Shown one piece after another: positions 24,531 to 63,273 of a DNA stretch of 64,000 nucleotides. The first letter of the stretch is position 1; the number at the start of each line of letters is the position of its first letter. This DNA comes from Euglena gracilis (lineage: Eukaryota), in assembly GCA_039621445.1 (NCBI GenBank), contig CP154954.1, forward strand, positions 9,939,521-10,003,520, in the 5' to 3' direction. The notes under the pieces are model-generated. The model was given only the letters and a program-made list of their open reading frames with translations. It did no database searches and was not told where the DNA came from. Both the position numbers and the translations under genes were made by a program.

Positions 24531-24822
24531 TTCGAGGGCCCCAAAATAACAAAATCCCTTGTGTTACCCACCCGTTTTGGGGGGCAAATTTCTTGTGTAA
24601 CCCAACTGATCTGGGGTGCAAATCCCTTTTGTTGCCCAATTGTTCGAGGGCCCCTAAATAACAAAATCCCTTGTGTTACCCACCCGTTTTGGGGGGCAAA
24701 TCCCTTGTGTAACCCAACTGATTTGGGGGGCAAATCCCTTTTGTTGCCCAACCGTTCGAGGGCCCCAAAATAGCAAAATCCCTTGTGTTACCCACCCGTT
24801 TTGGGGGGGGGCAAATCCCTTG
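24531..24822 (-). repeat. Inverted block of the 78-bp satellite
   Basis: Reverse complement of the monomer (gagggccccaaaataacaaaatcccttgtgttacccacccg...). Confidence 0.95.
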
Positions 24823-26636: not shown

Positions 26637-27430
26637 CCTCGAACAGTTGGGCAACAAAACGGATTTGCCCCCCAAATCAGTTGGGTTAGACAAGGGATTT
26701 GCCCCGCAAAACGGGTGGGTAACACAAGGGATTTTGTTATTTTGGGGCCCTCGAACAGTTGGGCAACAAAAGGGATTTGCCCCCCAAAACGGGTGGGTAA
26801 CACAAGGGATTTTGTTATTTAGGGGCCCTCGAATAGTTGGGCAACAAAAGGGATTTGCCCCCCAAAACGGGTGGGTAACACAAGGGATTTTGTTATTTTG
26901 GGGCCCTCGAACAGTTGGGCAACAAAGGGGTTTGCCATCCAAAACGGGTGGGCAGCACAAGGGATTTTGTTGTTTTGGGGCCCTCGAACAGTTGGGCAAC
27001 AAAGGGGTTTTCCATCCAAAACGGTTGGGCAGCACAAGGTTATTTGTTATTTTGCGGCCCTGAAACAGGTGGGAAACAAAGGGGTTTGCCATCCAAAACG
27101 GTTGGGCAGCACAAGGGAATTTGTTATTTTGTCAAAATTTCGCACAAAAAGGACTTAGCCCTCCAATTATGTGGCCAACATAGAAGGGATTTTGATTTGA
27201 GGGGGGGGGTGCGGGGGGGGGGGACGGAGCCCGGTATTTTGGGGCAACAAAGGGGTTTGCCATCCAAAACTGTTGGGCAGCACAAGGATATTTGTTATTT
27301 TGGGGCCCTGAAACAGTTGGGCAACAAAGGGGTTTGCCATCCAAAACGGTTGGGCAGCACAAGGGAATTTGTTATTTTGTCAAAATTTCGCACAAAAAGG
27401 ACTTAGCCCTCCAATTATGTTGCCAACATA
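26637..27430 (+). repeat. Distal, progressively diverged satellite monomers
   Basis: Same monomer, decaying to ccatccaaaacggttgggcagcacaagg variants. Includes a tandem duplication of about 240 bp containing gtcaaaatttcgcacaaaaaggacttagccc. Confidence 0.9.
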
Positions 27431-27569
27431 GAAGGGATTTTGATTTGAGGGGGGAGTTGCGGGGGGGGGGGACGGAGCCCCCCCCGCCGCCTATGCCAAT
27501 GTGATCCACAAAAACAACTTAGCCCCCAAGAAAGTTGCCAACATGTTCCGAAAATTTCCTTTTTTTTCT

Positions 27570-30378: not shown

Positions 30379-32899
30379 ATCAATTTCCCCCCCCCTGAAA
30401 TTGGCCGAAAATGGGGGGGGGGATTATTCGGGGGGGGGGGAAGATCGGGGTGACGCTGTATACCACCTCCCCCCCCCCCTAATTGACCGTGGGACCTCTC
30501 CACGGGACCCCCCTTTTGGTCAATTAGGGGGGGGGGGTTCAATTAGGGGGGGGTACCGTCAATTATGGGGTGCTTCAGCACGGAATCCCCCCGGGCAGTC
30601 AATTGGGGGGGTTGAAAAAATTCTCCCCGGGGCGTTTGGTCAATTAGGGGGGGGGGAGGTGGTACCGGGCGCATGGAGCCCACCTCCTACCCCACCCCAA
30701 ATGGCGGTCTTGGGCCTTTTACATCGCCCACAAGCCACCCCGGAAGCTTTCCACCAGTCATCACTCGCCGCGGGTCCTCGGAGCCCACCATCCCCTACAT
30801 ACTCCTACGCGACCTTAACAACAGCCCGAAGGGGCGACGGCAGTACAGTTGGGGTTTGTGGGGGGCCCCCCCCTCCCCCCCCCCTGTACAGTTGGGATTT
30901 TTGGGACCCCCCCCCCTAGTGGCGACCCCCCCCCGAGACAGATGAAAATTTTGACACCAAAAATGGCCTTTTAGGCCAAAAAAAGGCCCTAAAAAAAATT
31001 TTCCGGCGCCTTCGGCGCCGGGTTTTGGCCAATTTTTGAGGGGGGGTTGGCAGTACAGTTGGGACCCCAGGACCCTCCCCCCCCCTGTGTTGAGACAGTA
31101 CCAGGGGTATCCAAATGTAGACCGTACTAAACTCAAGAAATTCTAAAGCCGAACCACTCTCTTGTCGATATTTCTCTGTTCGAGCTCGCACAGTATTCGA
31201 AATAAGTATTCACATCTTTGGTACAGATGACCGCGACTGGGAACGCGGCGGGATATTACTAATTGGACTTTGGGCAAGCTGCTGTTGCCAAAGGTACTCA
31301 ACCGCACATGTTTTCACATCCTGAACTTTGTCTTCAGAGGAATGGACAAGTTTGTGGTCAGGAAATCTTGGTCACAATAGGATGTTTGATGCTGTGATGA
31401 GTTACAAGACTGGACGGCAGAAGTGGCTGAGAGGGGCTGTTGAGTTGACTGGTTTCTCTCGGCATCAAGCTCTCACGATGACAAAGGTTTGCCAAACTAT
31501 GATGTCAGGGAGTTCCTCCTTCTCTGCTGCAGAGCACAGGCAAGAATATTTTCTGAAGTGTATCGTGCAGAAGTTGGTGCGGAGCTGTTGCAGATGATTG
31601 TCACGCAAAGCTCAAGAATATGGTGCTGAGACCATGTACACAGGTGGCTTGAGCTGAAATGAACTTATTGGAATGAGTTTGTTACTAATCTGGACCTGAG
31701 CATGTCCGCGCCAAACTGCTCCATGTTGGGAATACGACCAGGAAATCGTTTGTATTTGTATTTTCTGTTGCTGTGCTTGAAAACCAAAAGTTTTTTTAAT
31801 ATGTTTTGTTTGCAAGGGTGTTTTCTGGGGCTTCGTGATTCTCAATAGTATGGCCCCAGGATGTGACATGTTGGATCTGCAATCTGGGTTTTTTTGAGTC
31901 AATGTGCCATCTGGCCTGTTTTGGGGGGCCTTTTTGGGTCTGCGGGTGGGGCTGTTTTGGGCAACGGGGGGGGGGAATGGGTGTTGTGGCAGATTGGTCG
32001 CCAGCTTTGGGGACAGTGGGCCATTTTTTTTGGCCACGGGTGGGGCCACCGGTCTCACATTTTTGGTCCAATTTCTGGCCACGGGGGGGCAGCTGGGTGC
32101 CACAGTTTTGGAGGATTTTTTTGCCCACGGGTCAAACAACTTCGGGCCAATTCTGTCGTGTCATCGGGACCAGGCTTCTTTTTAAGACCCCCGGGGGGGG
32201 GACCGGGCCCCATCCACGCAGGGTGGCGGGACCCTCCCCCCGGGGGGCGGGGACCCCCCAAAATTGGGCCCATTAAAGGCAATTTCCAAAAGTTTTCGGC
32301 GCTTCGCGCCGAAAAGGTATACCCAGCGCCTGTGGCGCCCGGCGGGGGGTGGCCGGCCCAGACCCACCCCCCCTCCCCTGGGAGACTCTGCAGCTTAAAA
32401 AGAAGCTTCATCGGGAAAGGTAAGTTACATATTTACTGGCGGGAAGCAGCGCGGCGACCTATGGGGAAACTCATGCCAAAAACCAACCTTCGACAAAAGT
32501 CTGTTCGACCGGAGCCGGCTGTCGGCATTTTATTGGCCGAGAAATTACTTGCCGACATTCATGCCAGTCGAGATTCCATGGGGGGAGGTACGGGGGTGGG
32601 CCGGGTCACGGGGGGGTCACGGGGGGGGGGCACGGGGGGGGGCACGGGGGGGATATGGCCTCCTCTTCAATGTTTCCGGCTTCCGCGACATTTGAAAAAA
32701 AAATACTGAAAGCAGTTGTGTTTGAAGCACGTGCGTTTGCGGACCCCAAAATCGGGGGGTGTTCAAATCCGGGTCACGGGGGGGTCACGGGGGGGGTCAC
32801 GGGGGGGGGTCACGGGGACGACACCCCCTACAGCAAAAAGTGCCAAAAAATGCAAAAAAACTGACCTCGGGACCCCCCCTCCCCCCTGCCAAAGTTCCG

Positions 32900-35440
32900 A
32901 AGCAGGTGCTCCTCCTCCGGGGCTTCGGGTCACCCTCGTCCACTTCGCTGGTCGGACATTCTCCTGGTATCATCAAGGCCTGTGGGACGTCCGCTTCCCG
33001 GCCCCTCGCCTGTGCCGAACATGCAAAGAGCACCACTGGCCATGGGATTGCTGGACCTTGCTGCCCACTGCTCACGTTACAAACTGACCCCGGCCCCTGC
33101 ATCCCACATTCATCGTCCGGACTTCCCCCTCAAGCATCCTCCCAGGAATCCGGCACGTAGGGAGAGGCTCCTTGATGACCTGGGAGACGTCGAGTCCAAC
33201 CCCGGGCCGGCCAAGAGGAATATGTCACCGCACCGTCGCCCAGACGTCCCAACGGACCACCACATGATCGACCTGGCACACGGCGCGTCCCACCGCGACA
33301 CCGCGTCGGTCATCGACCCAGCAGGTCATGAGGTCAACCTGCGCCTCATCCCCCAAGATTCCATCATCATCGGCCCCCCCCCCCGTTGCCTAGGATGTCC
33401 TCGAGGGCGGAGATGATGACCTCGGAGCATCTGTCCACGCTGTGTTGGTTGGCGTAAGTGTCGTCTGCCCGGAGGAGGTGATTGACCTTGCAGCCATCCA
33501 AGCAAGACCGAAGAAGGTGGTGAGCCACTTGAGCGTCTGGAATGTGTGTTATGGCGTCTGCTGCGCTGTCCAGCCGCTGGGTGGCCTCCTCCCACGCAGC
33601 GATGCTCTGGGCCGCGGAGCCTGGGTGGTTGATGGGGACGCCGAACACGGTGATACCGACCGATTCGTTCTAGGGTATTGTCCTTACTTTGGCGTGACTT
33701 GGGACCAAGGTGGCTGCTGGGCCCCAAAGTACGCATTTTGGAGGTTCAGGTTTTGGCCAACGCGTGGCGGTGTTGGAAGGTAAAGCTTTGCCTCCGCAGA
33801 AGAGTGGGACCGGTGTGCTGTAAGCGAAGTGTAAGTAGTTGTGGAGGGTCGGGGTCCGAGCCTACGCTTGCGTGAGGAGAGCTGAGCGATCCAACGTGTT
33901 GAATGCGTTGGAGAAGTCAACTTGCAAGGAGGCCCATGTCGCGGTGCCCCCCAGGCGGTTTGTTAGGTGCTGCATGCCCATGGCAATAAACTCAGCCGCA
34001 TTGGGGATGCCCACTCCGACTTGGATTGGTGACAGGCTACTGACCTGGGCCTTGGCTGCGCCCGTTTTCAGCAGGGCTTTCCCTACCAGTTGGCGGAGGG
34101 TTTCGCCCACTGCGACAGGCCGTACGCCGTCGTCCTTTTTGCGCAGCGGTGTGAGATTGGCGCAGCACCAGGCGCGGGCGTGGTCCAGGGGGAGCTTCCC
34201 ATGAATCCACGCGTGTGTCAGGAGGGCGATGGCTGTGATGAGGCGCGCCCCCCGGCCCGGCCGTCGAATAGCATCCTGGAGGTGGGCGGGTCTGAGACCC
34301 GAGGGGCCAGGCCCTGATCCCCGTGGGAAATGTTGTATACCTAGCCTCACGTATGCGATCCTCCCATGCAGGGGTCTGCCCATCTGGGAAAGGCGGGACT
34401 GCGGTGGGTAGTGCGGCGTGGTTCACCTGGTTGCCAAGCGGGTGAAGGGTTTCCAACTTGGCCCAGACCGCTGGGTCCTGAGCGTGGTGTGAGGGAGGAG
34501 CTGTACGGCTTTGGCGCTTGTGCCTTCGCCCGTGAGAGTCCGGATCCGGCGGAGTGTTTTGTCGCTGATCGTGTTTGGTTCGGTGCCGGCCTAGCTCTTG
34601 TTTTGATGGTGGTCCCCTGGGGGTTCCTGCGGACTTCGAGCAGGAGTTCGCGATACGCCCCCGTTCTGAATTGACGTACCCTACATGTTATGGTCGTCTC
34701 TAAGTCTTCGTAGGCGGTGGCACCAGAGGAAAGGATTGGCCTCAGGACCAGTTTGGGGAATGCGAGAATCGCGAAGAGGTTGGAGTCGTTCGGAGTTGTG
34801 GCGTAGTGCGTGATCACGTCGGCCAGAGTGTCCGATACCCCTTGCTGACATTTGGCAGGAACATGGCGCACTGTGGGAATGCGGTCTTGCCGAATGTCCC
34901 AAATAGGGCATGGGCTTGAGCCCCGAACAACGTTCACAAGCCGCCATGTCACTGTCCAATGACGGCCTGGGACTGAAGATCCCGTCGGTGACACAACCCG
35001 CAGCACGGATCGCCTCGCTTGTCTCTTTCTACACATCCGGTGCACAGCGGGTCGGCACCCCCGCCTACGCCACAGCGGTTGACGCGGCAACCACGCGACC
35101 CGTAATTGCGGACCTCCTCAACAAGCTGGGCCCAAACCACACCACCACCAACGCCCTTCACGCCAACCTCTCCAAATTCAGCCAGGGCGACACCAAAACC
35201 TCGAAGCAACAATGGTGGTCAAGGGAGCTTGGAAAAGAGGCCATGGTCCGCCTGATCGGTGCTTCTGCTCCGCGTGATCAAAACAGACTGTTGGAGCAAG
35301 CCAAAGGCATCGGGCATGGTTGGATGGCCGTACCCCCAAGCACCAACCCATCTACCACCATCCCAAGCGGTCAGTACCTGCTAGGCCTACGTTGTTGGTG
35401 GCTGGGCCTGCCAATCATGGATGACACGAGCTCCCCCTGC
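32900..35440 (+). mobile_element. Decayed CRE-like (RLE-type) non-LTR retrotransposon with internal inversion
   Basis: + strand CCHC knuckle and 2A-like motif; - strand RT motifs (33392-34904); + strand post-RT region (QAAMSLSNDGLGL...GWMAVPPS...WLGLPI). Confidence 0.8.
33392..34904 (-). pseudogene. Reverse transcriptase remnant, CRE-like
   Basis: LTPLRKKDDGVRPVAVGETLRQLVGK, QVGVG and VDFSNAFNTLDR are present. The QGDP and YxDD segments are missing (deletion near 33765), and there are stops and frameshifts. Confidence 0.85.
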
Positions 35441-35720
35441 GCCGCCGACCCACGACCTAGGATGGGCGACCCTGGGGGGCTCCACTCAGGGGGGGGGGTC
35501 CGGGACCCCCCTTCCCCCCCCTCCCATGCGAGGCCCCTGCGCGGTCGCTTGCCCCCCCCACGACCCCCCCTCCCCCCACTGCGCCTAACATGCCCGGGGA
35601 AATAAATTGCGAAAAATTGCGACTTTTTTGAGGCCCCAAAATGGTCAAAAATGACCATTTTTGGACAAAATGGCAAATTTGGGGGTTTCGTGCTCCGCGG
35701 GCAACCCAAAGACCCTAGGG

Positions 35721-36433: not shown

Positions 36434-37582
36434 ACCCTAGGAGGCTAGGCGCGCCGCTCGGGGGGGTCCGGGACCCCCCCTCCCCCCCCTGCACAGCCCC
36501 TGCGCGGCCGCTCGCCCCCCCCCCCTCATAGCCAAGAAAAAAACTTTCGTGAAAAAATCGCGACTTTTTTGAGGTCCAAATATGACCAAAAATGACCATT
36601 TGCGGACATAAAATGGCAAAATTGGGGGCCGCACGCTCTGCGCGCGGCCAAAAAAGCACTTTTTCGGTCAAAAATGCCCAAAAATGGCAAAAAATGGACC
36701 CGAATATTTGGACCCGAATATCACCGATTTTAGGATGCGCACTGCCCGCGCGGCCGCCCTCAGACCCCCCTCCCCCCCCTCCCCCCCGGCGCGCGCCCGC
36801 GCGGCCGCTCGCCCCCCCCCTCAGCCCCCCCCCCCCGCTGTGCCTAGCCTCCCTAGGGGGGTTGGTACGCCGTGGCGAGGGGGTCCGAATAGGGGGGGAA
36901 TGGCCGGAAAATGGCGTGGCGAGGGGGTCTCGGATGGGGGGGAGGGGTGTACCATGGTTGCACAATGAAAAATGTGTTGGGTGGCGTGGCGAGGGGGTCC
37001 GGCTGGGGGGGGGGAGGGGGGGTAAATGGCGTGGCGAGGCCCTCGGAGAGGGGGGGGGAGGGGTGTACCAACCCCCCCTAGGATCGGCCGACCCCACGAC
37101 CTCGACCCCCCTGTCAAAAAAATTAGAATTTTTTGGGGGAGCATGCCATCAGCCAGCCGTCGGCCAGCCGTGTGACTCAGGAAAATGAGGTTGGCCACAT
37201 CCTTGGAGGCGGACGGACGGACGGACGGACGGCTGGTGAAAAAAGCGAAGGTCCGGACGGACGGCTGACCTTGTGGGCTTGGTCCAGACGGCTGAAGAAA
37301 ATGCACTTGGTCCAGCTAGCCGGCTAGCCGGCTGGCCGGCTGGCCGGCTAGCCGGCCGGGTCTTTGGAAGCGCAGGCGTCTCAGTGCACGCGACTCTGGA
37401 GCTTGGGTGGCTGCCGCGGCTAGCCACCCATCTGGCTAGCCGCGGCCAGCCGCGGCTGGCTGGCTGGCAAAAAAAAGGAGGAGGTCTGGCCAGCCAAGAT
37501 TCGGTGTTCTGTCCCGAAACTTTCTTCCGCTTCATTTTGTTGGACTAGTCCTTTTCCTCTTTTGATATTGGAAGTGTATCGT

Positions 37583-37653
37583 GCACACAGTGTAGTTGGT
37601 GCAGCATGCAGTTCGGAACTGTCAGGTCGCGGGTTCAAACCCCGCTGTGTGCA
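37583..37653 (+). tRNA. tRNA-like sequence or pseudogene (CGG at anticodon position, Pro-like)
   Basis: Acceptor stem gcacaca/tgtgtgc, T arm gcggg-ttcaaac-cccgc, anticodon loop ttCGGaa, followed by a T4 tract. The D-arm region is defective. Confidence 0.55.
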
Positions 37654-39441
37654 AGTTTTCCTCACTGGAAACTCTCGTTTTTTTGAAGAAATTATGAATC
37701 ACCCTCACGCAAAAAAAAACTTGCATCCCCAATTCTTCTCCTTCAGTGTCACAATGCCGTTTCGGGTGGAAGCGGTGTGGGATAGTTATGATGAAAGTAC
37801 AGGGTGCTGAAATGTAGTGAAAATACAGGAACTTATTGCTTTATGGAAAGAGGGCCAACATCACCACATGCAGGCCACTCAGGCCTTTGCTCTGAACAAA
37901 TCCACATTCGATCGAGCAGAGGCCTGCCTGCAACACGGTGACAGGCCCTTGGTGGGTCTACTTGTTTTCTGCTTGGTACTTGCTACTTGCATCACAAGTT
38001 TCAAGTCTGAAGACAGATTTCACAGACATTTTGTCCTTAGATGCTGGTTTTCTTCTGAAACTTCCATTTTTGTTTCTTGCGTTCTTTATTTGCTGTTCGA
38101 CAAATGTTCTTGGAAACCAAAAAATTGGGGGAGAAGTTTTTCAATCTGGCAAACGGCCCAAAATTTTGCATTTCACATTTTTTGCGATGTCATGGTTTTT
38201 TTTTTGGGCCAGATGTGGTGGCCAGTTTTGGGCCAGATGTTCCATCCAGTTTTGGGCTAGATGTGGTGGCCAGTTTTGGGCCACAGGATACTCTCAGGAA
38301 GGAGTTGTTTGGGTGCCATTCTCTTGGAAAGGGGGGGCAGAAAAGCGTTTTGTTTCCTTTTTTTTTGGCAAAATATGTGTTGTTCAACGAGAAAAATGTC
38401 AGTAAAATTTGACTGTGCCAAAAGTTTGTTTACTTTATTGACCTTCGTTTTTTTCACCTCCTCAAAAGTATGAGTTTTTAGGACGGAAAATTTTGAGGTT
38501 TTTTGTGAAAAAAGTTTTTTTCCATCAAAAATCACGTGTTTTTGGGTTTTATTTTTCAAAAAACTTTTCTGGGCAAAATCCCCGTTTTCCCGAAAACGGT
38601 GAAAATGTTGTGGTGGGTGTGGGGGGGGCCCCCTTCCGGTTCTTCCGGCGCAGTCTTTTGGTGCTGCCGTCAAATATGTTGAAGAAATGTTCATCCACCC
38701 GAAAAATAAATAGCATTGGACTCCCTGCAGGCGCACTCACGGCAATGCTGGAGCGTGCACACCAGGAAAAACCGAAGGGCAGGGCCGATTTCTTGATTTG
38801 ACGCGACGAGTGGAGGGAAGCCGTGACTGCTTTTCGGAAGGAAGGAAATTTTTTTTTTTGGTCCGGCCGGCTGGCAAGACAGACATTGGTCCGGCTTGAC
38901 GGACGGCTGGCGAAAAAATGCTTCGTCCGGACGGACGGTTGGGCGTCCAGCATTGGTCCGGCTGAAGAGGTCCGGACGGCTCGGACGGCTAGCCGGCCAG
39001 CCGCCCCCCTTGTGGTGGTGGAGCTCAATAATCTCCCTTCAAGGTCATGTTTATCATTGGGGGTGGTTTGGGTCACGGGGAGGTCACGGGGGGGGGGTCA
39101 CAGGGGGAACACCACATTTTTGGTGGCAAAATTAGGAATCACCGAGCCGGATTTTTTGTGGAAAAATTCCACAAATTAGGAATCCCCACACCTGAAATTA
39201 GGAATTTGACACCAAATTAGGAATCACCAAGCCCAAATTTGAAAATTTTACACCTCAAAATTAGGAATCTGCATGAGAATTTTATCAAATTAGGCATCAC
39301 CGGCCAAAAATTTTCCCAACAAAATTTCGCCGAAAAGGGTCCTTGTTCGGGTCACGGGGGGGTCACGGGGGGGGGTCACGGGGGGGTCACGGGAGTAACA
39401 CCCCCATTGGTGGGGGTTGCATTTTCAGGTTGCATTTGGGT

Positions 39442-41013
39442 TGAAGCTTTTCTCCTTGAACTGGAACTTCTCCAAACAACTTGATAGTTCCAAACTTGAA
39501 ATGTCCTACCTCTTGTTATAATCGTGTCCAAGACACAGCCACAGGCAAAGCACGTAATGTGCACTGCCAAACAACGAGAAAACCAAAACTGTGAAGAGGA
39601 GGTGAGAGGAATGTATTGCATTAGAAGAAATACGGTGGTGGGGCGAACCGAATCCACCGACCAGTGGCACAGCCTACTGGATTTGAAGAGTTCAGGGGAG
39701 TAAGGCTATGTACAGAGGCACGCTGGTGAAGGGAGGGAAGGTAAAAGGGGCCAGCTTAGAGGATAGTATAAGGCGCGAGGTGCGGGGGCAGGTAAGAGGG
39801 GTGAGCTTAGCGAAATGATCTCGTCGTGCTGCGGGTGCACAGGCGATTTGTAATCCTGTTCTCGATCTCCGCAATTCTGATTGGTCATTGTGATCTGGAT
39901 TGGGTGGACGGGCCCTTCGTTTCCTACTGCACCAGGTTCGGGTCACGAGGTGCGCTTGAAGAGGTTGTATGGTGGACCCGGCTGGCACATGGCTTTAGGT
40001 CCCTCACGGGGGTTCAGCCCCCCTTCAGTTGTGTGCGACTTCTGCACCTCCATGGTGGACATCCGGAGAGAGTTCTCGGCTTTTGGTATTCCATTTCAGG
40101 TGTTTGGAGCTCAGCCTCGGGGCTGTGAAGTACAGTAGGGTTTATGAGCTTCAGGGAGGCTATGGTCAGCGAGCTCTTCGGGGCATTGTCCCCAAACCAA
40201 TTGTCGTCCAACCTCCCGGGCCAGAGTCATGCTTATTCCTTGCCAGCAGGTCCCCTCGACGCCCCTCCTCTCCCAGGCGTCGTGTTGTCCTGCTAGCAGC
40301 TTGATGCAATTACCAACAAAGGTGAGCGCACCATCCCCCATGCCACCATAACAGTCCAAGACAAAGGGTATGAATGTCCAGCCTCTGCGTTGGCAACCAT
40401 CTCCATACTTCTTTATCTTGTCCTGCTCTTGTTCCTCATGCCACTTGCCAATGTCCTGCAAGCCATCGCGATTTCGCGAAGGCGCAAGTGGGTGACGAAT
40501 GGTGACGTCGATGGCTGCCGGGCCGTTTGCATCGTACCTCATGACGAATACGGCGCCTGGTCGTGAGCCACCTGGGCAACTTTCTTCCCTTCTGGCTGGG
40601 AAGCCTGCACGCTGCGCGAGCCCGAGGATGTGCGATTGCACCGCATTGTGCCGCCGGACTATGTTGTTTTTGTGGCAGCAGACAAGGTGGTGGCCTCTAA
40701 CACTTGTGGGGTTGTGGCACCTTGAGCAGACAGGTGGGCTGTCCGTAGCGCTGACCACCGGGGCACCCAGACACCACTGGACGATCGCCTGAAATTCTCT
40801 GGTGGGAATCAGTGTTTTGGTCGAGGCACACGGTGTCACTGAGGCCCATGCCATGGCAGAGGAATGTACAATTACAGTAGCGAAACTGTCCGCGAAGCAG
40901 TTGACAGTGAATTCCTGAGCAGCAGGGAGCTGCCAGGAAGGAGACATCGCAAAGCGACGCCTGGGTGAGAGGAAAGTGATCTGTGCACTGGTAAATCAGG
41001 CTACGGCGTTACA
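39442..41013 (-). repeat. 3' LTR of copy 1, interrupted by a non-LTR insertion
   Basis: 1572 bp minus 1253 bp (insert plus TSD) gives 319 bp matching the other LTRs. Confidence 0.95.
39616..40857 (-). mobile_element. 5'-truncated CRE-like non-LTR retrotransposon (CCHC plus restriction-like endonuclease)
   Basis: 11-bp TSD agaggaatgta (39605-39615 and 40858-40868). CSRC..HLVCC..RHN..RPG..IDVTIRHP..KIKKY..FIPFVLDCYGGMG. Confidence 0.9.
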
Positions 41014-41026
41014 ATCTCCCCCTCGC
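41014..41026 (-). promoter_or_regulatory. Polypurine tract (copy 2 at 55455-55467)
   Basis: gcgagggggagat lies immediately before the TGTAAC start of the 3' LTR on the minus strand. Confidence 0.8.
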
Positions 41027-41340
41027 AAACAGGCAGGGCAGGTTTGCGACAAATGACGCCGTTTCTCAATGGGTTGCCGAATGAAATTCAGCATCCTCAG
41101 CAGAGACTTTGGGTCTGGATTGGGGTCAAAGATCAGAAAACCTTGAAGGTACTCACCTCAGGCTTCCATGGGCTCCTACTTGGTTCGGATCCTCTTGCGG
41201 AAAAGCCAGGCAGGCACTCAAAGTTGAAGAGTTTGGTTTGCTAACTCATCAGAGAAGCAAAACAGGGTAGCCATGCGGACAGGAATTCGGGAGGCAAGGT
41301 CTTGAGCGTTTTTCAGCGGGACATTCAAGTTCTTGGACTC

Positions 41341-41500
41341 GCAATAATCCACAAAAGCTTTGGTCAGACAACCATCATTGTGGATGAACGCTTTAATTGG
41401 TTCCCAAGTTGCGTCTTGGAGACCATAGCCTTTCAACACAGTCAGGAACCTCCAACCTTGTTTGTACTTGTGAGTCTGGATGGATTCAACTTCAAAAAAT
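41341..41500 (-). other. Chromodomain at integrase C-terminus (copy 2 about 55782-55941)
   Basis: FFEVESIQTHKYKQGWRFLTV(W/L)KGYGLQD(A/E)TWEPIKAF matches the chromo pattern V-W-K-G-Y...T-W-E-P. Confidence 0.9.
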
Positions 41501-44500
41501 CCGTCTTCTTCAGTGTTGGGTTCCTCACGTGGGGCTTCAGGTTGATTTGCCTCATCCCGAACGGAAATTTCTGCTTCGTCTTCATTGTCGCTCAGTTCTT
41601 CAGGCTGGTTTGGAAAATGCTTCAGGAACTCGAAGGCGACTTCAACTTCACCTCCCAGTTTCGGGGATGCTCTCAGCAAAACAGCGGAGTGCTTGACTTG
41701 GATGGTCCAAACCATTGAGATCCCAGTTTTACAGTTGGCCATTGGGGAAACCGATTGCGATGGACCAGGACATAGTCATTGACTTGATAGACAGCGCTTG
41801 ACCTTCCACGGTTGTTTCTCTGAAGCGCCTTTTCTCTGAGAGCTTTCAGCAGTTGGACAGCGGACTCTTGAAGAGAAATTTGGTTGGTGATCCAGGTTTG
41901 GACATTCGGGTTGGCATCAGGCTCAGGGACAAGGTCAGGTTGCCAGGCGGGTCGACCGAAGAAAAGTTCAGCGGGGCACAGTTGGGTTGATGAGTGAACT
42001 TGGTTGTTCATCATCCAGGTGCACAGGGGAACAAGGCGAATCCAGTCCTTTGATTTTTGGCTTGCCATCAAACACCGCATGTTTTGTACAAAACTCCGAT
42101 TCATCCTTTCGCACAAACCATTGTTCTCAGGCCTTCGGGGGGTTGAGAAATTTACTTTCACTTTCATGGCCTTCAGGGCGGATTGCCAAAATCCTCTTTC
42201 TGAAACGAAACGCACATCGTTGTCACTGAATATTTCTTTGGGGCGACCGAACTTCTGAATCCATTCTCTGATCACAAGTTCCAGAACACCTTCTGCATCG
42301 ATCCGTTTGCGGCAGGGGATGAACTGGGCAAAGCGGGACAAACCACAGACAATTGTCAAAATGTAGTCCTTGCCAGCATATTCATCCATCGAGATGAAAT
42401 CAACATACAAAATTTCATTCACCATCGAAGGGATCGGCAACGCACCAACCAATCCTCGGTCTTTGGCTGAGTTCGGTTTTGCTTCAGCACAGATTCTGCA
42501 AGACAAAATGGTTTACCGAACTTCTTCCATCAGGTCTTTCAGAGTCAAGTCAACGTGGAAATTGCTTTTCAGGAACCAGGTTGTCCTTTCGATTCCAGGA
42601 TGTCCATTGATCGTGTGACACCAGACAATTGTGTCAGGCAATTTTCCTTTCGGTAGGGCAAGCTTCTTTTCATTCCACAATTTGTTCTCGTCGCGGTAAA
42701 ACATGGTTCCGTCAATCAGGGTTGCAGTGTGAGGTTGGATTCTCCCCCAAACTTGTGCATTCTCCTCTTGATAGTCCTGGGCGCAAAGGTCCTTCATTTG
42801 TTCCAAAGCCTCCATTCTCAGATCAAGCTGGATGTCCATTCTTTGGAAAGCTTGTCGGGCAAGGTCCTCACTGTCAGCTTGGAAAAGTTCACAAAACTTT
42901 TCACGGGAGAGCATATCACAGAGTTCATTCTTGGCACCAGGGATGTGATGGATGTGGAGTCGGAACTGGGACAGGAAAACCCACCAGCGTTTCAGTCGGG
43001 CATTCTCAGGGGGGTTCCCGCGAACAAAGTACGAAACGGCAGCTTGGTCGCACAGCCAGACAATGGGCAGGTGTGAGAGGATTCGGCGTTGAGACGCAAT
43101 GCCCAACACCCCACCCAGCAATTCTTGTTCGTAGGTAGCGTAATTTTGGCGTGCGGGCGACCATTTCCAATTAAAATGGCCGAGCGGCACGAGAACTTCG
43201 CTTTCAGTGTGGGTGTGTTTCAGGGTTCCATCACGGTTGACTCCGATCACAGCACCAAACGACTCAGTTTTGTCTTTGCTCAACTTTTGCCATTGGTAGA
43301 GGCTTGCACCGCCACCAACATCATAGGCGTCAGTGACAATCAGAATTTCTCCATCACTGTTGGGGACTCCCAAATTTCTGGCATCGGCAAGTTTGGCTTT
43401 CAAGGTCTCAAAAGCAGATTGATGTTCATCGGTCCATTTGAACGGAACACCCTTTTTGGTCAGGTCAGTCAGAATGGCTGATGTGAAAGAGAACCTTGGG
43501 ATGTGGCGGCGATAGAAGTTGAGGGCTCCGAGAAAACGTTGAAGGGACTTGAGATCTTTCACTTGGACACGCTGCAAAGCCTCAATTTTCTTTGTCGAGG
43601 GTTTCCACCAGCCATTTTCCAGTTGATATCCGAGGTACTCCAGACTTTCTTTCATGAACTCACACTTGCTAAGTTTTATTCTGAGGTGATCTTGTCGGGC
43701 GACTTCGAAAACTCTCTCAAAATCTCATGGTGTTGTTCCAACGTGTGGGTTCCAATTCCAACGTCATCAAAGAAGGCGGCAACAACACATCCTTGCCCCA
43801 GGAGTTCCTTGGCTCTGGGTCTGCGTCGAAAATCATCGATGACTTTGTTCATTAGCTCTTGGAACACTCCAGGGGCATTGCTCAGACAAAAAGGCATCAC
43901 CCTCCACTTGTACACGCGTCCATTTGGCAAAATAAAGGCAGTCAACTCCTGGGCTCGGAGAGTCAACTCCACCTGCCAAAATCCAGAGCGCATGTCCAGT
44001 TTTGACTTGAAACGCAGGGCGGCCAGGCCTTCAACAGTGGCTTCAAGGTCCGGCAGAAAACCAACGTGGGGAACAGTCTTGCAATTCAACTTGCTGTAAT
44101 CACCAACAAGTCGTTTGGTTTTCGCAATTTTGGTCTCTTTGCCTTTGTCCTTCTCCACCAGGAATGAGCGAGAACAGAATCTGGGAAAATCTGAACCCTT
44201 GAATTCTTCCACCAATCCAGTACTGACAAGTTCCTCAACCTGTCTTTCCATCTCCAAAACATCAGGCTTCGGCATGGAAAAGCATTTCTCGCGAACAGTC
44301 GAACCTTGAAATTCAGGTTTTAGCTCCAGATCCATGGATACCAGTTTCTTGCAGGTACCAGGGGGTGGCAATTCTCCAAAAACATCGGAAAATTCTTGTA
44401 GGATCGATTTGATTGTGGGCTCTGCGTCCAGCTTTTCCAATTCTTGATTGAACTCGCCATGCAAAATGTCCGATTCCTTCCACTGCTTTTGGGTTGCTTG

Positions 44501-44965
44501 CATTTGAAGATGTGTGTGCTCCTTTGGGTTGAACAGGGATGCAATTTGTTGGAAATCACTTCGGCAGGCGGGAAAAAACGGGGAAGACGGTTTGGCCTTG
44601 GTGGACCACTCTCCCCCATTGGCGAATTGTCGAACAACGGTTGAAACATCTTGGAGCAATTCGGAAATCTGAAAAATTTGTGAGTCCACTTCACGGGTCA
44701 GTTCAGCCATGAACAAGTCCAAATCCCAGGTTGAATCAAGCTCAAAATCGTCTTTCAGGGAAACTGGCGAGAGATCAGGCAGTTTGGGCTCACAGGGCTT
44801 TGATGGTGTGCAGGGAACACGCGATTTTGGCTCTTGGGCATCAACTTCCACAAAGACCTCCTTTGGTTTGTGAATGGCTTTCAGATCAGACAGACCAAGA
44901 TTTTTGCATCTGCGATGGAGGTGTGCCAAAAGTCTTGGGTCAAGCTCAGACACACGAACTCGGGT

Positions 44966-45403
44966 GCCGTCCACCACAGAAATCAGAGTCCCCCATTAGG
45001 GTTTTGGCAGGACCCTTTGATCTTTTTCGCGCATGAATATCTTTTCATCAGGCACACTGATCTGATCCACAGTCATTCTGTCCAACAGTCTTCTCCAATT
45101 TGTGCTCGAACCTCCAGTCCAGTCAGGGGTCACAAGAACCACTTTGGCCCTGTCCATCCCAATTTTGGTCAATGTCTTTTCCAGTTTGGACCACGGCGGA
45201 TTTGCCCACAGAAACTCAGACTCATTGGCCATCAATTTTGACCAGTCATATTTCCATGCGCTGTTTTCCTTCGAACAGTGGAGCAATTCATGGGCATTGC
45301 CTTGTGAAGCAAACAGGTCCACTCGGATTTTGGTTGGTTCAATTCCAAGATCATTCAGCGCTTTGTCTCGCAAAGTGGGTAGCAACTGATAGCTTTCAGT
45401 GGC
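44966..45403 (-). other. N6-adenine DNA methyltransferase-like domain, copy 1
   Basis: VDLFAS..N, AWKYDW, LWANPPW (NPPW at 45191-45202), VVLVTPDW. Premature stop at 44996. Confidence 0.85.
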
Positions 45404-47803
45404 AAACATTCGATACATGGAGTAAATGTGTCCTTTTTCCTCACGCAGGGGAATTGCCTCATCACCAATGACGAGACGGGCAGGACGAAACAGGATTCCA
45501 GAAACTTTGGGGTGGTTCAGGAAATCCATACCAAGAACAGCATCGAACGCGGTTGTGTTCAGGACAAGCAGCTTTTGGTGAAAGTCGTTGTTCCCCAGAT
45601 GCAGGGTGGTTTCAGCACACCTTCCGAATACACAACAGTTCCATCGCCCATCTTGACAGGGACTGCCTTTTCTCTTTGGACAGGAAGCCCTTGGGAGAAA
45701 CGGGTTGAAATGGCAGACGTGGTGGTCTTGGTATCGAGAACAACCGACACATTTCTTCCACCAATGTTGGTTTCCAAATACAACGTGGTGCTTGGTTTTC
45801 CCAGATATGAAATGGATTCGAATTTGCGCTTCTTTCCAGGGTCTTCCCCAGAATTGGGGGGCGAATTTGCAAGCAAGTTTGACTGTGTGGAAGGACGGGG
45901 CGGCTGAGGCGACGATTGATTCAGACGCTTCTTGTCCTCGCGTTTTTTCGTCCAACAGGCATCCTCATAATGGCCGACACGCTTGCAGTATTTGCAGGTT
46001 ATTTTCGCCTTGAAATTTGGCTCGTTGCTGCGGTCCGCGGGGGGTCCACGGCCAGAGGGTTTGTGTTGGTTGAAACCTTTGCCTTTGCCTTTGCCCTTGG
46101 ACTTGCCTTTGCCAGGGTTGGTCGAACTTGGCTCATCACTTTCCCCAATCAAGTGGATTTTTGCGGACTTCTCACCACCGAAGGCTTTGGCTTGGGAATA
46201 CAGATAACGTTCCAGGGCATCGTCGGTGACTTTCTTTCGCCAAAATTCTTTCAGGGAATCAAAGGTCGAACATTTGTCACGGTTGCGTTCATCAGCTCTC
46301 ATGTCTTTCCATTGCAGGGGGTGAATTTTGGACACAAGCAGTTAGAAGCTTTTCCTGCTCACCCAGGGCATCAGGGGACATCCGGGACAAAATGTCAGAC
46401 ATTTCCACAAACAGCGCTTCAAGTTCACCGGGCGAAGGTTCTTTGGATAATTGGGGAAGCTTGGAAAGTTGGGCTCGCAGTGAAATGTCATTTTCAACCT
46501 TCGGATAAACTTGCATCAGGCGGGGGACAAATTCAGAAAATTCATCCACTTCTTCGGCAAGCCATTCGACGACTCTCAAAACTTTGGGGGTTGAAGCGGC
46601 GATAGCCCAGTCAAGTTGAATGTTGTCGGGCTGGCTTTCCACACCGGTCAGGCGCATCCATCTTGAAAAGGAGCGAAGCCAAATTTCTGCATCCGAACCG
46701 TCAAACTTCGGTAATTCTAGTCCAGGCACACGAGACACAAGACCAGGCTTTCGTTCAGTGTCGGCAGTGTCAGCAGACTTCCTGGCGATCAATTTTGGAG
46801 GCCGGGGGGCGAAGGGAGATTTTGCTGTTGCTGGAAGTGAAACATTTGGGCTGCTTAACTCGAGTCCAGCGAGGCGGGCTTCAAGCTCAGCAATTTTCTG
46901 GGCAAACGATTCTTCACCAACTTCAGACATTTTTTTCGTTTTGGTTCGATCAGTTTCTGAGTAGGTGGGCTGTGTAACAGGTTGGCAGACAAAGGCTCAA
47001 AATCTGGGTCAGGCTTGCACTCAAAATCAGGGGGGTCACTCAAAATCTGGGACAGGCTGCGCTCAAAATCAGGGGGGGAGCAGGCTGTCAGTTGGACCTC
47101 CAAACTGGCAAACAAACTTTCAGACTTTTGAGCTGAACAGTTGAAAATCAACTGGCAAACCACTTTGGTACAAACAGTTGAATGGAACTTTGACAAACGA
47201 GCTGGCAAACAAACTTGCAGAAATTTGCCAACAATTCTGATCAAACAGTCTGGCAGACAGACTTCCAAAACAGAATCACAGATCAGACTTGCAGACATTC
47301 TGTCAACCAACTGCTTGCCAAAACAGCTGTTGTCACTCAAAATCCTGGGGGTTGGCTGGTCAATGGGGGGATTTTGGCAAGCAGCTGGTCCAGGGGGGGC
47401 TGGTTGGCACTCAAAATCCGTTTGTGTTGGTGTGGCAATCTTCCAAACAGACTTCCAACAATCAAACAGCAAACAATCAAACCAACAAACTTCAAGTTTT
47501 CTGTCAGACAGACTTCCAAAGTCCAGAAACACAGTTTCAAACAAACAAACTTGCAAGAAACAAGAATCTTTCTGGGGGGTGGGTCGCTATGTACAACAGT
47601 GTAACAGTGAAGTACAGAAAACGTTCTACCTCCTCCGACGACTCTGCACCCAGAACTTGTTGTCCTCAAACTTGAAAACTTGAAAGATAAGGCCCCAGTG
47701 GCCACGGCAAATGCCAAAACCAGCTTCAGCCAAAACTGCTCTGCACGAAGTCGAGATTCCCCAGCAGCTGACGACTGTCGACAGCACGTAGGATCGTAGT
47801 ACT

Positions 47804-47816
47804 CCTCTTGCTACCA
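47804..47816 (-). promoter_or_regulatory. Primer-binding site TGGTAGCAAGAGG, probably for initiator tRNA-Met (copy 2 at 62162-62174)
   Basis: 1 nt from the 5' LTR. Its complement ends GCTACCA like many eukaryotic tRNAi-Met, and the nearby ggatcg resembles the iMet T loop. Confidence 0.7.
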
Positions 47817-47817
47817 A

Positions 47818-48136
47818 TGAAGCTTTTCTCCTTGAACTGGAACTTCTCCAAACAACTTGATAGTTCCAAACTTGAAATGTCCTACCTCTTGTTATAATCG
47901 TGTCCAAGACACAGCCACAGGCAAAGCACGTAATGTGCACTGCCAAACAACGAGAAAACCAAAACTGTGAAGAGGAGGTGAGAGGAATGTACAATTACAG
48001 TAGCGAAACTGTCCGCGAAGCAGTTGATAGTGAATTCCTGAGCAGCAGGGAGCTGCCAGGAAGGAGACATCGCAAAGCGACGCCTGGGTAAGAGGAAAGT
48101 GATCTGTGCACTGGTAAATCAGGCTACGGCGTTACA
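47818..48136 (-). repeat. 5' LTR of copy 1
   Basis: tgaagcttttc...ctacggcgttaca, 319 bp. Confidence 0.97.
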
Positions 48137-48234
48137 TGGGTCTTTTTGCATTTTTTTGGCAGATTTGTGATTCCTTGGCCTCTATATCAAGAACTGTGTT
48201 GCTAACCCAACCTCTTTCCTGAGGCCTGGGTTGC

Positions 48235-48912
48235 TTGGATCAGGCCCAAAATCCAGCACGTCCACCCCCGGCAGACACTGTATTGTTTGGCGACACGTTT
48301 GCCGAACAAGCGGGACTCCCAACGGGAACGGAAAAGAACCAAAAACTTTCCTTCCATGCGGCGATGGATTTTGCCAAAGTTCTGGCCCATCAAAATTGCG
48401 TTTTGTCCAATTTGGATGATTGGATGACCGCCTTTGCAAAATGGACTTTGTCTGTGGGCTGCCTTTTTGATGATGTCACTCAAAGAGATGTTGCCTTGGC
48501 GCAACGAAAAGATCTATGTGCCGCTGCTGGTGTTCCTGTTCGATATTGGAGTCCCCCAACACTGAAGACCAACGTGAATGCGTTGGCCCTCATGTACAAG
48601 CAAACAGGTCCGGCGTCTGGCATCGTCCTGAGTGCAAATTTCAGTTTCCGAATTTTTGTCGGTTTTTAAACGCAGCCTATGACCGTGCTCGGACAACTTC
48701 GGCCACCAAAGATTCAGTCGCAGTGCTGACGGACGAAGAAATGGTCACATTGCATGACCACAAATTTTCAGTCATGCTACGAGTTGCAACGCATGAGCTT
48801 GCTTCTCATCGCCTTCCAACTTGGCTACCGGCCCGATTCCTTAATTGACCTCCGTGTCCGCAATTTTCAACTACAGACACAGGACGTGTTGTGTTTGCTA
48901 CTGCAATCTTAG
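48235..48912 (+). pseudogene. Frameshifted tyrosine-recombinase-like (Crypton-like) ORF, copy 1
   Basis: Same sequence as 62593-63273 with indels. Confidence 0.5.
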
Positions 48913-49954
48913 CCTGCAATGTCCATCCATCATATTTCTGTATTCTTCAATGTCTTTTTTCGTTGGTATGACGGAGGGTGTGTTAGCAACCCATGCCTCA
49001 GGACAAAGGCTGTGCACAGCCTTTGTCAAGCCCTGAGGCCTGCGTTACTAACACAGCCTCTGTCCTGAGGCCTGGTGCTGGTAACACGGCCTCAACCATT
49101 TTGGTCAAATTTTGGTCAATTTCATGGTCACCTTGCTTGTATCTGGAGTTCTAATGTGGACAAACAACTAATTCCAAGAGGGACAAACAAACCATTTTCT
49201 TGGCAGGGAATTTCCTTATTGTTCAAAATCAGTGAATGCGTAAACTCGGTGGTTTACATCTGCCAGAGGGAGAAGGAACCTCATCGCGATTAAAACGGAT
49301 TTTTTCCGACGAGTTAAATACCATACCGACTCCCCAGTATTTTGGTGTCCTAATTCCTAACTTTGAGTGACAAACACTACCATGCAGCATTGGGTATCTT
49401 TCGAAAGATTGGTGGAATCTTGCCTTTCAGAACATTTCAGAAATATTTCAGAAATATTTCGAAAAAAGAAAAATATTTCCTTCAGTTTTTGCAACGATGA
49501 AGGATCCACCAGGACCTGGGGACCTTGGAAGATCAGCTAGCGGGAAAGGTTAAGCGGGGAAAATTTTTTTTTGCAAGAGGCCAGAAACGGAATCGAACCA
49601 ACGAGGTTTTGAATCAAAACGGAATTAAACCGCGCGCTTTTAATGCCCTTTTATTAACTAACTGCTTTGCACTTTGAAACACCCCTCTTTAGGCAATTGC
49701 TCCTCAAAATTATGAATGTTTTCATTAAGGAATTTGCCAATCAATATTTGGCATTGGAACACCAGATTTGGGATTAGGCATTGCTGCACAAAATAAGATC
49801 AACAACATGAGCTGGTTTCCGTCACGCCGTCGGCCAGCCGTGTGCTCCCCCTTTGATGTTTTAGGCCTTGAAATAGAAAGAAAACAAAAAGAAGGAACAC
49901 TGATATTGGTTCCTCATGCTGAAATTCACCCCAAAATCACTTGTTGATGTGAGG

Positions 49955-52502: not shown

Positions 52503-53079
52503 ACGGTGGTGGGGCGAACCGAATCCACCGACCAGTGGCGCAGCCTACTGGCTTTGAGGGTCCACAGGCGGTTATGGTAATTTACAGATGGGGCAAACTA
52601 CGGCGTGCAAAGTACGGCGGGAGGAAAATGGGCTAGGCCCACCTTCAATACGCTGCGCGGGGAAAGGGAAGGGGCACGTGGGGGTACTGGAGTTCGTGAG
52701 GAGGAGGGTAAGGGGCAGGACGGTGCGAGGCGTGGAAGGGAGTGTGGCGTCTGGTCGTGTTGTGTGTGTGTGTGTGTGTTGTGGCTGCCTCGCTCTCTCT
52801 TTTTTTTTAACGGAGTATGTGTTTGGGCTGTAGGAGATGGAAGACTTCTCGTAGTAGGGCAATAGCGACGTTCTGGTAAATCTCCGCCTCCTTTAGTTCT
52901 CGTTCGGCTCCCTGTTGCCAGGAGGAGGCGCGTCTCGCCACCCTGCTCAGAGTTTTGGCCGTCTCGGGTCCCATGCCCCCCCTCGTCCCGAGGGCGAAGG
53001 GCGTAAAGCCCCAGCCTGCTTGCTGGCATGGGATGTTGTATTTCTGCCTCTTGGCCTCCTCCCTTCTCTTCAGGAAGGA
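52503..53079 (-). mobile_element. 3' fragment of another CRE-like non-LTR family
   Basis: EEAKRQKY..C..AGWGFTPFALGTRGGMG (RLE C-terminus). The 3'-terminal about 48 nt are shared with the element at 39616. Confidence 0.8.
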
Positions 53080-53273
53080 TCTCAGTGCACGCGACTCTGG
53101 AGCTTGGGTGGCTGCCGCGGCTAGCCCTAGCCGCGGCCAGCCGCGGCTGGCTGGCTGGCAAAAAAAAGGAGGAGGTCTGGCCAGCCAAGATTCGGTGTTC
53201 TGTCCCGAAACTTTCTTCCGCTTCATTTTGTTGGACTAGTCCTTTTCCTCTTTTGATATTGGAAGTGTATCGT

Positions 53274-53347
53274 GCACATAGTGTAGTTGGTGCAGCAGCA
53301 TGCAGTTCGGAACTGTCAGGTCGCGGGTTCAAACCCCGCTGTGTGCA
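53274..53347 (+). tRNA. tRNA-like sequence, duplicate copy
   Basis: A-box-like tagtgtagttgg, B-box ggttcaaaccc, same arms as 37583. Confidence 0.5.
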
Positions 53348-62592: not shown

Positions 62593-63273
62593 TTGGATCA
62601 GGCCCAAAATCCAGCACGTCCACCCCCGGCAGACACTGTATTGTTTGGCGACACGTTTGCCGAACAAGCGGGACTCCCAACGGGAACGGAAAAGAACCAA
62701 AAACTTTCCTTCCATGCGGCGATGGATTTTGCCAAAGTTCTGGCCCATCAAAATTGCGTTTTGTCCAATTTGGATGATTGGATGACCGCCTTTGCAAAAT
62801 GGACTTTGTCTGTGGGCTGCCTTTTTGATGATGTCACTCAAAGAGATGTTGCCTTGGCGCAACGAAAAGATCTATGTGCCGCTGCTGGTGTTCCTGTTCG
62901 ATATTGGAGTCCCCCAACACTGAAGACCAACGTGAATGCGTTGGCCCTCATGTACAAGCAAACAGGTCCGGCGTCTGGCATCGTCCCGAGTGCACAATTT
63001 CAGTTTCCGAATTTTTGTCGGTTTTTAAACGCAGCCTATGACCGTGCTCGGACAACTTCGGCCACCAAAGAGTCAGTCGCAGTGCTGACGGACGAAGAAA
63101 TGGTCACATTGCATGACAAAACAAATTTTCAGTCATGCTACGAGTTGCAACGCATGAGCTTGCTTCTCATCGCCTTCCAACTTGGCTACCGGCCCGATTC
63201 CTTAATTGACCTCCGTGTCCGCAATTTTCAACTACAGACACAGGACGTGTTGTGTTTGCTACTGCAATCTTAG
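62593..63273 (+). pseudogene. Tyrosine-recombinase-like (Crypton-like) ORF, truncated after box I
   Basis: YWSPPTLKTNVNAL..FPNFCRFL..LTDEEMVTL..LLLIAFQLGYRPDSLIDLRVRNF resembles YR box I (G-x-R, R at 63190-63192). No HxxR or catalytic Tyr is seen. Confidence 0.55.

Follow-up and report, generated by a model that had tools for sequence, protein, structure and literature searches.

Can a 2A-like ribosome-skipping (StopGo) peptide be an inherited part of a non-LTR retrotransposon (one without long terminal repeats, LTRs) that carries a restriction-like endonuclease (RLE)? This question is raised by a 64,000-nt window of the Euglena gracilis genome (assembly GCA_039621445.1, contig CP154954.1, positions 9,939,521–10,003,520; "the window" is this whole stretch, and coordinates are counted from its first letter), where a 2A motif lies next to fragments of a reverse transcriptase (RT). 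According to the available text of Odon 2013 (PMC3708506) and of a commentary (PMC3894237), 2A is confined to clades with an apurinic/apyrimidinic-type endonuclease (APE), and RLE elements have one open reading frame (ORF) each. We estimate at roughly 0.78 the probability that the motif is what remains of a genuine N-terminal 2A (StopGo) site in a multi-copy, R2-like family of non-LTR elements with the order RT, CCHC, RLE and no APE.

Identification of the 2A motif

The perfect GDVESNPGP reported in the initial annotation is indeed encoded at 33183–33209 (plus strand, frame 3), within the 14-mer LLDDLGDVESNPGP at 33168–33209; the enclosing stop-to-stop ORF spans 32865–33416 and reads ...NPARRERLLDDLGDVESNPGPAKRNMSPH... 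around the motif. Both D[VI]ExNPGP and NPGP alone occur just once in the six frames of the window. Skipping is predicted at the bond between Gly (33204–33206) and Pro (33207–33209). With the motif defined as D(V/I)ExNPG↓P (10.64898/2026.09.24.754024; PMC3708506, both in their available text) and the classes A and B, the latter Trp-bearing, as given in the accessible part of PMC12338488, the window motif is predicted to be of class A: D(V/I)ExNPG↓P stands at the C-terminus of the peptide, and a leucine stretch precedes GDVE (ERLLDDLGDVE in the window, GRG.LL.CGD[VI]E in the relatives described below). The ORF continues past the 2A proline in eight of these relatives; in the window the 2A frame is open at 32865–33416, and beyond either end of this ORF the element is broken.

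As an explanation, a chance NPGP string with no 2A history is negligible. The motif is short, and nothing else favors such an origin; on the other side, the strict motif had no hits in 200 mononucleotide shuffles of the window, and the back-translated IUPAC (International Union of Pure and Applied Chemistry) pattern matches the window once and none of 100 dinucleotide-preserving shuffles. As neither set of shuffles reproduces it, the 2A of the window is a real motif and no chance string; moreover, homologues have the same motif at the same position.

The 2A and the RT as parts of one element

Relatives were collected in a HMMER search of 1.84 billion representative proteins (E ≤ 0.001) with the RT piece at 33865–34422 (minus strand) as the query. 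The search yielded 4,322 relatives (individual ones are denoted P0001 and so on), the best of them 58–63% identical, with lengths of up to 1,294 amino acids (aa). The anatomy of the window copy, derived from tblastn of intact relatives onto the window, is as follows.

32888..33111, plus strand, frame 1: 5'-truncated region preceding the 2A, with a stop at 33088–33090; it lacks the Dam-like module seen in fuller relatives
33013..33051, plus strand, frame 1: Cys/His motif CRTCKEHHWPWDC, CX2CX3HX4C, inside the conserved LWD...P.P.LC..C...HWPWDC..LLPT
33156..33209, plus strand: 2A/StopGo peptide RRERLLDDLGDVESNPGP, core GDVESNPGP at 33183–33209, aligning with the last 2A of P0001, P0004, P0005, P0006, P0007 and P0018
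33210..33383, plus strand: post-2A N-terminal segment of the RT–RLE protein, with the conserved DLAH (33270–33281) and AGHEVNL
33385..34913, minus strand: inverted block comprising the conserved part before the RT, the RT itself and the thumb, frameshifted at least once and lacking ~60–65 aa in frame at 33738/33739
34907..35445, plus strand: post-RT linker, ending where the CCHC motif starts; no RLE and no 3' untranslated region
35446..35492, no strand: filler between the element homology and a high-copy G/C-run repeat, delimited by loose contig ends at 35445 and by the contig joint 32887 to 35493

The matches of P0006 are arranged along the window in the following way.

P0006 aa 178–237: 32935–33111, plus strand, frame 1, Cys motif
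P0006 aa 266–344: 33159–33383, plus strand, frame 3, 2A and the following part
P0006 aa 354–753: 34913–33739, minus strand, pre-RT region and RT (aa 354–468 at 34913–34575, aa 460–753 at 34653–33739)
P0006 aa 814–930: 33738–33388, minus strand, remaining RT and thumb
P0006 aa 930–1106: 34907–35440, plus strand, post-RT linker

The window copy begins at approximately residue 178 of P0006 and stops at the start of the CCHC motif. Its region upstream of the 2A matches P0007 aa 123–172 with 54% identity (50 aa, E = 7e-19) and P0006 aa 178–237 with 40% identity; the left edge (32887/32888) follows from a contig joint by which the flanking repeat is connected across the block. Across the 2A and downstream of it, the window is 35% identical to P0001 over 85 aa (E = 2e-8); five of six close relatives, all but P0005, share the DLAH with the window, and an AG[HN]EV stretch downstream of the 2A is common to the window and the relatives. 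The RT pieces are 45% identical to the RT of P0004–P0006, and the post-RT linker maps to P0006 aa 930–1106 and P0004 aa 662–846 with 39–42% identity. As homology to intact relatives spans the motif on both sides, the 2A and the neighboring RT are judged to belong to the same element, with the 2A upstream of the RT once the inversion is undone, in line with the original proposal.

The Cys/His motif is in a frame different from that of the 2A (frame 1 versus frame 3), also as first noted; with 158 nt from the end of the Cys/His motif to the end of the NPGP, there must therefore be a frameshift between them. Since it is 5'-truncated and frameshifted, carries a 1.5-kb inversion, has no YLDD (removed along with QG.PLGP by the ~60–65-aa deletion at 33738/33739) and is cut before the RLE, the window copy is a dead fossil that cannot function. 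Pfam gave no match in the window's own fragments of the 2A element.

Two candidate features were rejected. The tblastn match of P0005 aa 110–172 at 30672–30878 (30% identity, E = 1e-4) falls on proline-rich low-complexity sequence and was not counted as part of the element, and the two 19-nt stretches of CGGGACCCCCCCTCCCCCC, at 32868 and 35501, were not accepted as a target-site duplication, as contigs without the block retain both of them.

The RT-like ORFs are minus-stranded and the post-RT ORF is plus-stranded, so that the inversion named in the initial annotation is real. Logan contigs from four DNA runs were compared with 32700–35700. Contigs from three to four independent runs join ~33351–33385 to ~34911–34917 on the opposite strand. 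Such a joint represents the order without inversion, in which the 2A part comes directly before the pre-RT part; the block 33385–34913 of the window is inverted relative to its flanks. Loose contig ends give the other junction of the non-inverted order; they also show other copies extending past 35445, into a C...D..GD pattern. No listed contig piece is collinear across 33384 or 34907, and the inversion in the window is either genomic or an assembly artefact. Contigs also link both flanks (32887 to 35493), with nine other letters replacing the 2.6-kb block. The depth of the element is in the hundreds to thousands (~1e3 when summed over contigs, versus ~1e5 for the flanking repeat), and the family is therefore multi-copy. 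In one run a contig joins 34905 to 32929 with two extra letters, which suggests at least one other rearranged family copy with a different breakpoint.

The initial annotation also considered that the 2A could come from a different adjacent element. Such an origin of the 2A and its upstream sequence, from an abutting element or virus through nested insertion or an assembly chimera, would fit the heavy rearrangement of the region (inversion, truncations), the block being no clean target-primed insertion, and the Cys motif being in another frame. On the contrary, eight independent relatives share the order, homology crosses the motif, contigs of other runs have the 2A part immediately followed by the pre-RT part, and the Dam-like modules of the relatives group together and not with the LTR-borne Dam of the window; a foreign origin is very improbable.

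Conservation of the 2A among relatives

The 2A scan covered 150 listed relatives of the 4,322, and a site is visible only in the 29 that extend 230 aa or more beyond the query on its upstream side. Among the matches listed, eight of these 29 informative relatives (P0001, P0004, P0005, P0006, P0007, P0018, P0042, and P0049) have the canonical GRG.LL.CGD[VI]E.NPGP on one protein with the RT and upstream of it, several of them in tandem. The last 2A ends 229–251 aa before the query start in close relatives and at ~222 aa, as estimated from coordinates, in the window. Mean pairwise identity is 0.88 in the last nine residues of the 2A, compared to 0.20 in the upstream and 0.28 in the downstream flank, which points to selection on the motif. 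In intact relatives a single frame runs through the upstream module, 2A, RT and RLE; hence the check proposed earlier, whether the Cys-rich part, 2A, RT and RLE form one frame with a conserved motif, has a positive outcome in these proteins.

In an IQ-TREE phylogeny of 110 RT segments (P0018 was omitted, its RT match being partial), the window belongs to a 13-row clade with a Shimodaira–Hasegawa-like approximate likelihood ratio (SH-aLRT) support of 93, and all six rows with a known N-terminus, the window included, have the 2A. The sister group of this clade holds P0015, which has no 2A, and P0042 and P0049 are found in a neighboring group. The 2A label requires three changes on the tree, and none of 500 shuffles is as low.

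Searches of metagenome contigs with P0006 and of viral contigs with the close-clade alignment gave no relative, the Atlas search gave no family lead, and the protein search with the post-RT piece gave two matches.

Variant 2A-like sites are observed in P0018, P0042, and P0049 (DIQPNPGP, DVEQHPGP, NVHPHPGP, and the Trp-bearing W.RDLT.DGDVE.NPGP), and appear to stand between classes A and B as published. In P0049, whose 2A may be closer to class B, a Trp is found 17 residues from the 2A end.

Endonuclease type

The RT is of the non-LTR type: the relatives match RVT_1, and the family profile matches R2 and L1 ORF2p. The C-termini of P0004, P0005, P0006, P0151, and P0152 contain the series C..C...GDH...C, RH, E, RPAD, A.DVT, K..KY, R.GW, and the same series is described for the R2 endonuclease in the accessible part of PMC4838377. 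P0151 and P0152 are the nearest relatives of the post-RT part of the window (49–50% identity) and continue into a full CCHC–RLE. The profile built from 20 long relatives aligns with R2Tg from the RT through the C-terminus (E = 5.7e-37), and with L1 ORF2p over the RT only, with no alignment over the APE; a phmmer search of P0006 against PDB sequences gave no match. For the AlphaFold2 (AF2) model of P0004, a protein that starts at its 2A (predicted local distance difference test score, pLDDT, of 86), R2 structures occupy PDB ranks 1–7 (E from 6e-21 to 1e-17), above L1 ORF2p.

The family is RLE-type and has no APE. The CCHC and the PD-(D/E)XK RLE, C-terminal to the RT in the family, are absent from the 2A-bearing window copy; the initial assignment to an RLE-type element thus holds for the family, given its C-terminal motifs, the R2 profile, the folds and the absence of APE, and fails for the window copy, which is truncated at ~35445 and has no RLE.

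We see little room for an APE-type or Dualen-type (APE and RLE in one protein) family whose APE has been missed, a reading with only a remote chance of being correct. The published 2A-bearing long interspersed nuclear elements (LINEs) belong to the APE type (Odon 2013, PMC3708506, as far as its available text goes) or include Dualen/RandI, and the window copy has neither of its ends. However, all 23 long relatives are without Exo_endo_phos or RNase H matches in Pfam, the family profile finds no alignment with the APE of L1 ORF2p, R2 stands above L1 in the fold search, and P0004 has only ~257 aa between the 2A and the RT match, modeled as high-confidence helices with only isolated single-residue strands besides.

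As for the RLE clades listed in the available text of PMC4640811 (CRE, R2, R4, NeSL, HERO), affinity to each of them is possible, and the CRE-like type of the initial annotation is one candidate among these, R2 being the single one of them compared. Rfam gave no spliced-leader gene or other recognized target at the flanks, and only two tRNA-like matches in the window; the 2A copy sits in the high-copy G/C-run repeat, and its ends are not native.

Upstream modules

The Cys/His motif is common to P0007 (CPSCRADHWPWDC) and P0006 (CPACQDWKWPWNC, with Lys replacing His); in other relatives, the C..C...H.C motifs upstream of the 2A are longer. Moreover, the upstream part of five of the eight 2A-bearing relatives contains a Dam-like adenine methyltransferase, recognized by PF05869 with (D/N)PP(Y/F/W); it is absent from the 5'-truncated window copy. 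At a cut-off of 28.1, the PF05869 bit scores are 28.3 for P0006, 31.3 for P0018 and 31.5 for P0042, and that of P0005 is just below (27.3); P0007 begins at its NPPF. The suggestion that the upstream product is a small zinc-knuckle protein was not upheld, given the CX2CX3HX4C spacing, the Lys for His in P0006 and the Dam-like module in fuller relatives.

The Dam-like modules of the LINE relatives are 34–47% identical to one another, and 22–33% identical to the two Dam-like domains of Ty3/gypsy elements in the window; all retain NPPF/W. The modules of the LINE relatives group together, apart from the LTR-borne Dam of the window. The order in P0018 is 2A-like, Dam, 2A, Cys motif, 2A, RT, and that in P0042 is Dam, two His-variant 2A-like sites and a canonical one, C2H2, RT, RLE; the predicted arrangement of modules and 2A sites in these two proteins is polyprotein-like.

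Proposed mechanism and its weighing

In intact members, a long ORF begins with an accessory N-terminal part; one to three 2A sites follow, and then the RT–RLE. The accessory part contains the Cys/His motif and, in fuller relatives, also the Dam-like N6-adenine methyltransferase. At NPG↓P the ribosome would let go of the upstream product and resume from the proline, so that a single mRNA without ORF1 would yield the accessory protein(s) and the RT–RLE as separate polypeptides. StopGo activity is suggested by the conservation of the motif, and the role of the upstream products is likewise presumed from their sequence.

A further-reaching version is more doubtful than not, and we offer it tentatively. 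It describes an RLE-LINE lineage with a picornavirus-style polyprotein, in which up to three StopGo sites would release Dam, a small Cys/His protein and the RT–RLE, and Dam might mark the element's own copies with N6-methyladenine (6mA), and so hold them in transcriptionally permissive chromatin; 2A would then be used for the first time in the "ancient" RLE branch, and no earlier LINE would have had a Dam.

The 2A-like site could instead be mainly a translational brake, with stalling or drop-off lowering the amount of RT–RLE per mRNA and no useful release upstream. The available text of 10.64898/2026.06.17.732966 reports lower protein abundance for 59% of the 2A-like peptides tested from ORF2p and for 70% of those from ORF1p, and tandem 2A sites (P0005, P0007, P0042) would compound the loss. 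But the upstream modules are conserved domains (Dam-like, 34–47% identical, with NPPF kept), and those of P0018 are individually bracketed by 2A sites, as separate release predicts. We consider a mainly braking role unlikely; braking and separate release are not mutually exclusive, and both can hold.

Several observations weigh against a StopGo site inherited by an RLE family. The upstream half of the window 2A, RRERLLDDL, deviates from the GRG.LL.CG consensus of relatives, and this variant may be weak. By arithmetic on window coordinates, only one of three non-inverted joints is in frame, with the copies differing by indels. Among the matches listed, 21 of the 29 informative relatives have no 2A, and no 2A-like motif was found in any frame of 80 more distant metagenome loci (from the superfamily alignment, 25–41% identity, 34 of them with more than 1 kb upstream). 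The tree comes from a quick search, and the relatives are gene predictions from metagenomes. The window copy has no RLE, its RLE type being deduced from relatives and a short loose-end consensus. Finally, most retrotransposon 2A-like peptides tested in 10.64898/2026.06.17.732966, according to its accessible text, lowered abundance and did not give clean skipping. As 21/29 informative relatives and 80/80 distant loci show none, the 2A is no general feature of RLE elements; on the sequences compared, it is rather a conserved trait of a subclade and not of the whole superfamily.

In retrotransposons, 2A has so far been seen as a trait of the "young" APE-type elements, thought to permit the loss of ORF1 (Odon 2013, PMC3708506, in its available text). 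A conserved 2A in an R2-like RLE lineage means that the device has also been adopted in the "ancient" single-ORF branch, where it appears to do the opposite job, adding accessory proteins to a one-protein element. The family is a testable system for the release of an active adenine methyltransferase and the methylation of its own copies, and supplies natural, often tandem, class A 2A variants for recoding studies.

Surroundings in the window

The window is made up of repeats. Two more fragments of RLE-type elements are found downstream.

39616..40857, minus strand: more distant RLE-type element with CCHC and RLE, a 5'-truncated 1,242-bp insertion without a poly(A) tail
52813..53265, minus strand: third RLE C-terminal fragment, cut at the edge of a segmental duplication (boundary 53080)

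The first is flanked by an exact 11-bp target-site duplication, AGAGGAATGTA, at 39605–39615 and 40858–40868, and is located within the LTR of a Ty3/gypsy element that is present in duplicate; as the other copy keeps the empty site (55299–55309), the insertion is younger than the duplication, whose copies are 98.4–98.7% identical. Its product is 27–30% identical to the C-termini of P0004–P0006. The C-terminal fragment 40114–40995 (minus strand), folded with the family alignment, gave an AF2 pLDDT of 79.5, and the top seven Foldseek matches in PDB are all R2, with archaeal Hjc resolvases, Prp8 and restriction enzymes in the ranks below. The third fragment is 44% identical to P0005 aa 1184–1271 and 32% to P0006 aa 1148–1291.

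The segmental duplication (~11 kb, 37379–49631 versus 53080–64000) consists of three collinear blocks with 98.4–98.7% identity and contains the tRNA-Pro(CGG)-like sequences at 37581–37653 and 53272–53347. Two Ty3/gypsy elements on the minus strand occupy 40.9–49.6 kb and 55.3–64.0 kb, with 319-bp LTRs at 47818, 55136, and 62176. Each has a Dam-like domain between the protease and the RT (~44984–45322 and ~59336–59674; weak PF05869, NPPW), and the pair is of the "DAM-LTR" kind described in the available text of 10.64898/2026.05.21.726589.

The beginning of the window is occupied by a 78-bp satellite array (1–23300, also 24531–24822 inverted, and 26692–27480), with higher-order periods of 156, 234, and ~268 and a strong positive GC skew. 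The flanks of the 2A element (32700–32887 and 35493–35700) are an extremely high-copy G/C-run repeat with GGTCACGGGGGGG units.

Comparison with known systems

In the literature searched, in its available text, we found no 2A in an RLE-only element and no Dam-carrying LINE. The initial remark that a 2A would be unusual in an RLE clade needs to be toned down, as 2A-like peptides are commoner among non-LTR elements than assumed there, by what the 2026 preprints, including their Dualen/RandI cases, state in their available text. There, 2A-like peptides are reported in the ORF2p of 16 species, most with APE, and in Haematococcus Dualen/RandI together with N-terminal deubiquitinases (10.64898/2026.06.17.732966), and 330 class A contigs carry RTs, mostly non-LTR-like, with the endonucleases untyped (10.64898/2026.09.24.754024).

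The 2A-bearing APE-type LINEs described in the accessible text of PMC3708506 (L1Tc/ingi of trypanosomes; Rex1, Crack, L2, L2A, and CR1 of metazoans) have the same class-A-type GD(V/I)ExNPGP, N-terminal in the RT ORF, are mostly without a separate ORF1, and share the proposed release of an N-terminal product. They have the APE directly after the 2A, whereas the family studied here has a C-terminal RLE and no APE was found in it; moreover, its predicted upstream product is a Dam-like methyltransferase with a Cys/His motif, and an ORF may contain up to three 2A sites.

R2 (9dou, 9nl3, 9nl2, 8gh6) has the same order of RT, linker, CCHC and RLE, with the RH, PD, D, K..KY and R.GW motifs, and is the best match both by sequence profile and by fold, although the fold alignment gives only ~14% identity. 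In the literature searched, in which no R2-specific search was made, no 2A site of R2 surfaced. Unlike R2, the close clade has no detected Myb or C2H2 N-terminal DNA-binding domain, and targeting of ribosomal DNA (rDNA) was not seen.

Elements of the CRE clade (CRE1/2, SLACS, CZAR) are single-ORF and RLE-type, with Cys/His motifs N-terminal to the RT. At the flanks of the 2A element in the window no spliced-leader gene is found, and the related insertion is in an LTR, with an 11-bp duplication, and looks non-specific. NeSL/Utopia, as presented in the accessible part of PMC4640811, is a precedent for an RLE-type LINE gaining an N-terminal enzyme, an Ulp1-like protease; that source gives a protease domain and no 2A, and release would be proteolytic there and not by translational recoding.

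Dualen/RandI and the algal and dinoflagellate ORF2p of 10.64898/2026.06.17.732966, in its available text, likewise have a 2A-like peptide between an accessory N-terminal enzyme and the RT, and Dualen also has an RLE. Dualen has an APE too, and RNase H is listed for it in the accessible text of PMC4640811, while neither was found in our family, whose accessory enzyme is Dam-like and not a deubiquitinase. Finally, the available text of 10.64898/2026.05.21.726589 assigns Dam to DIRS and Ty3/gypsy elements, mentioning LINE-like RTs only as a Euglena oddity. These DAM-DIRS and DAM-LTR elements have the same small prokaryote-like methyltransferase (PF05869, NPPF/W); in the family described here, by comparison, the DAM shares an ORF with a non-LTR RT–RLE and is set off from it by 2A sites.

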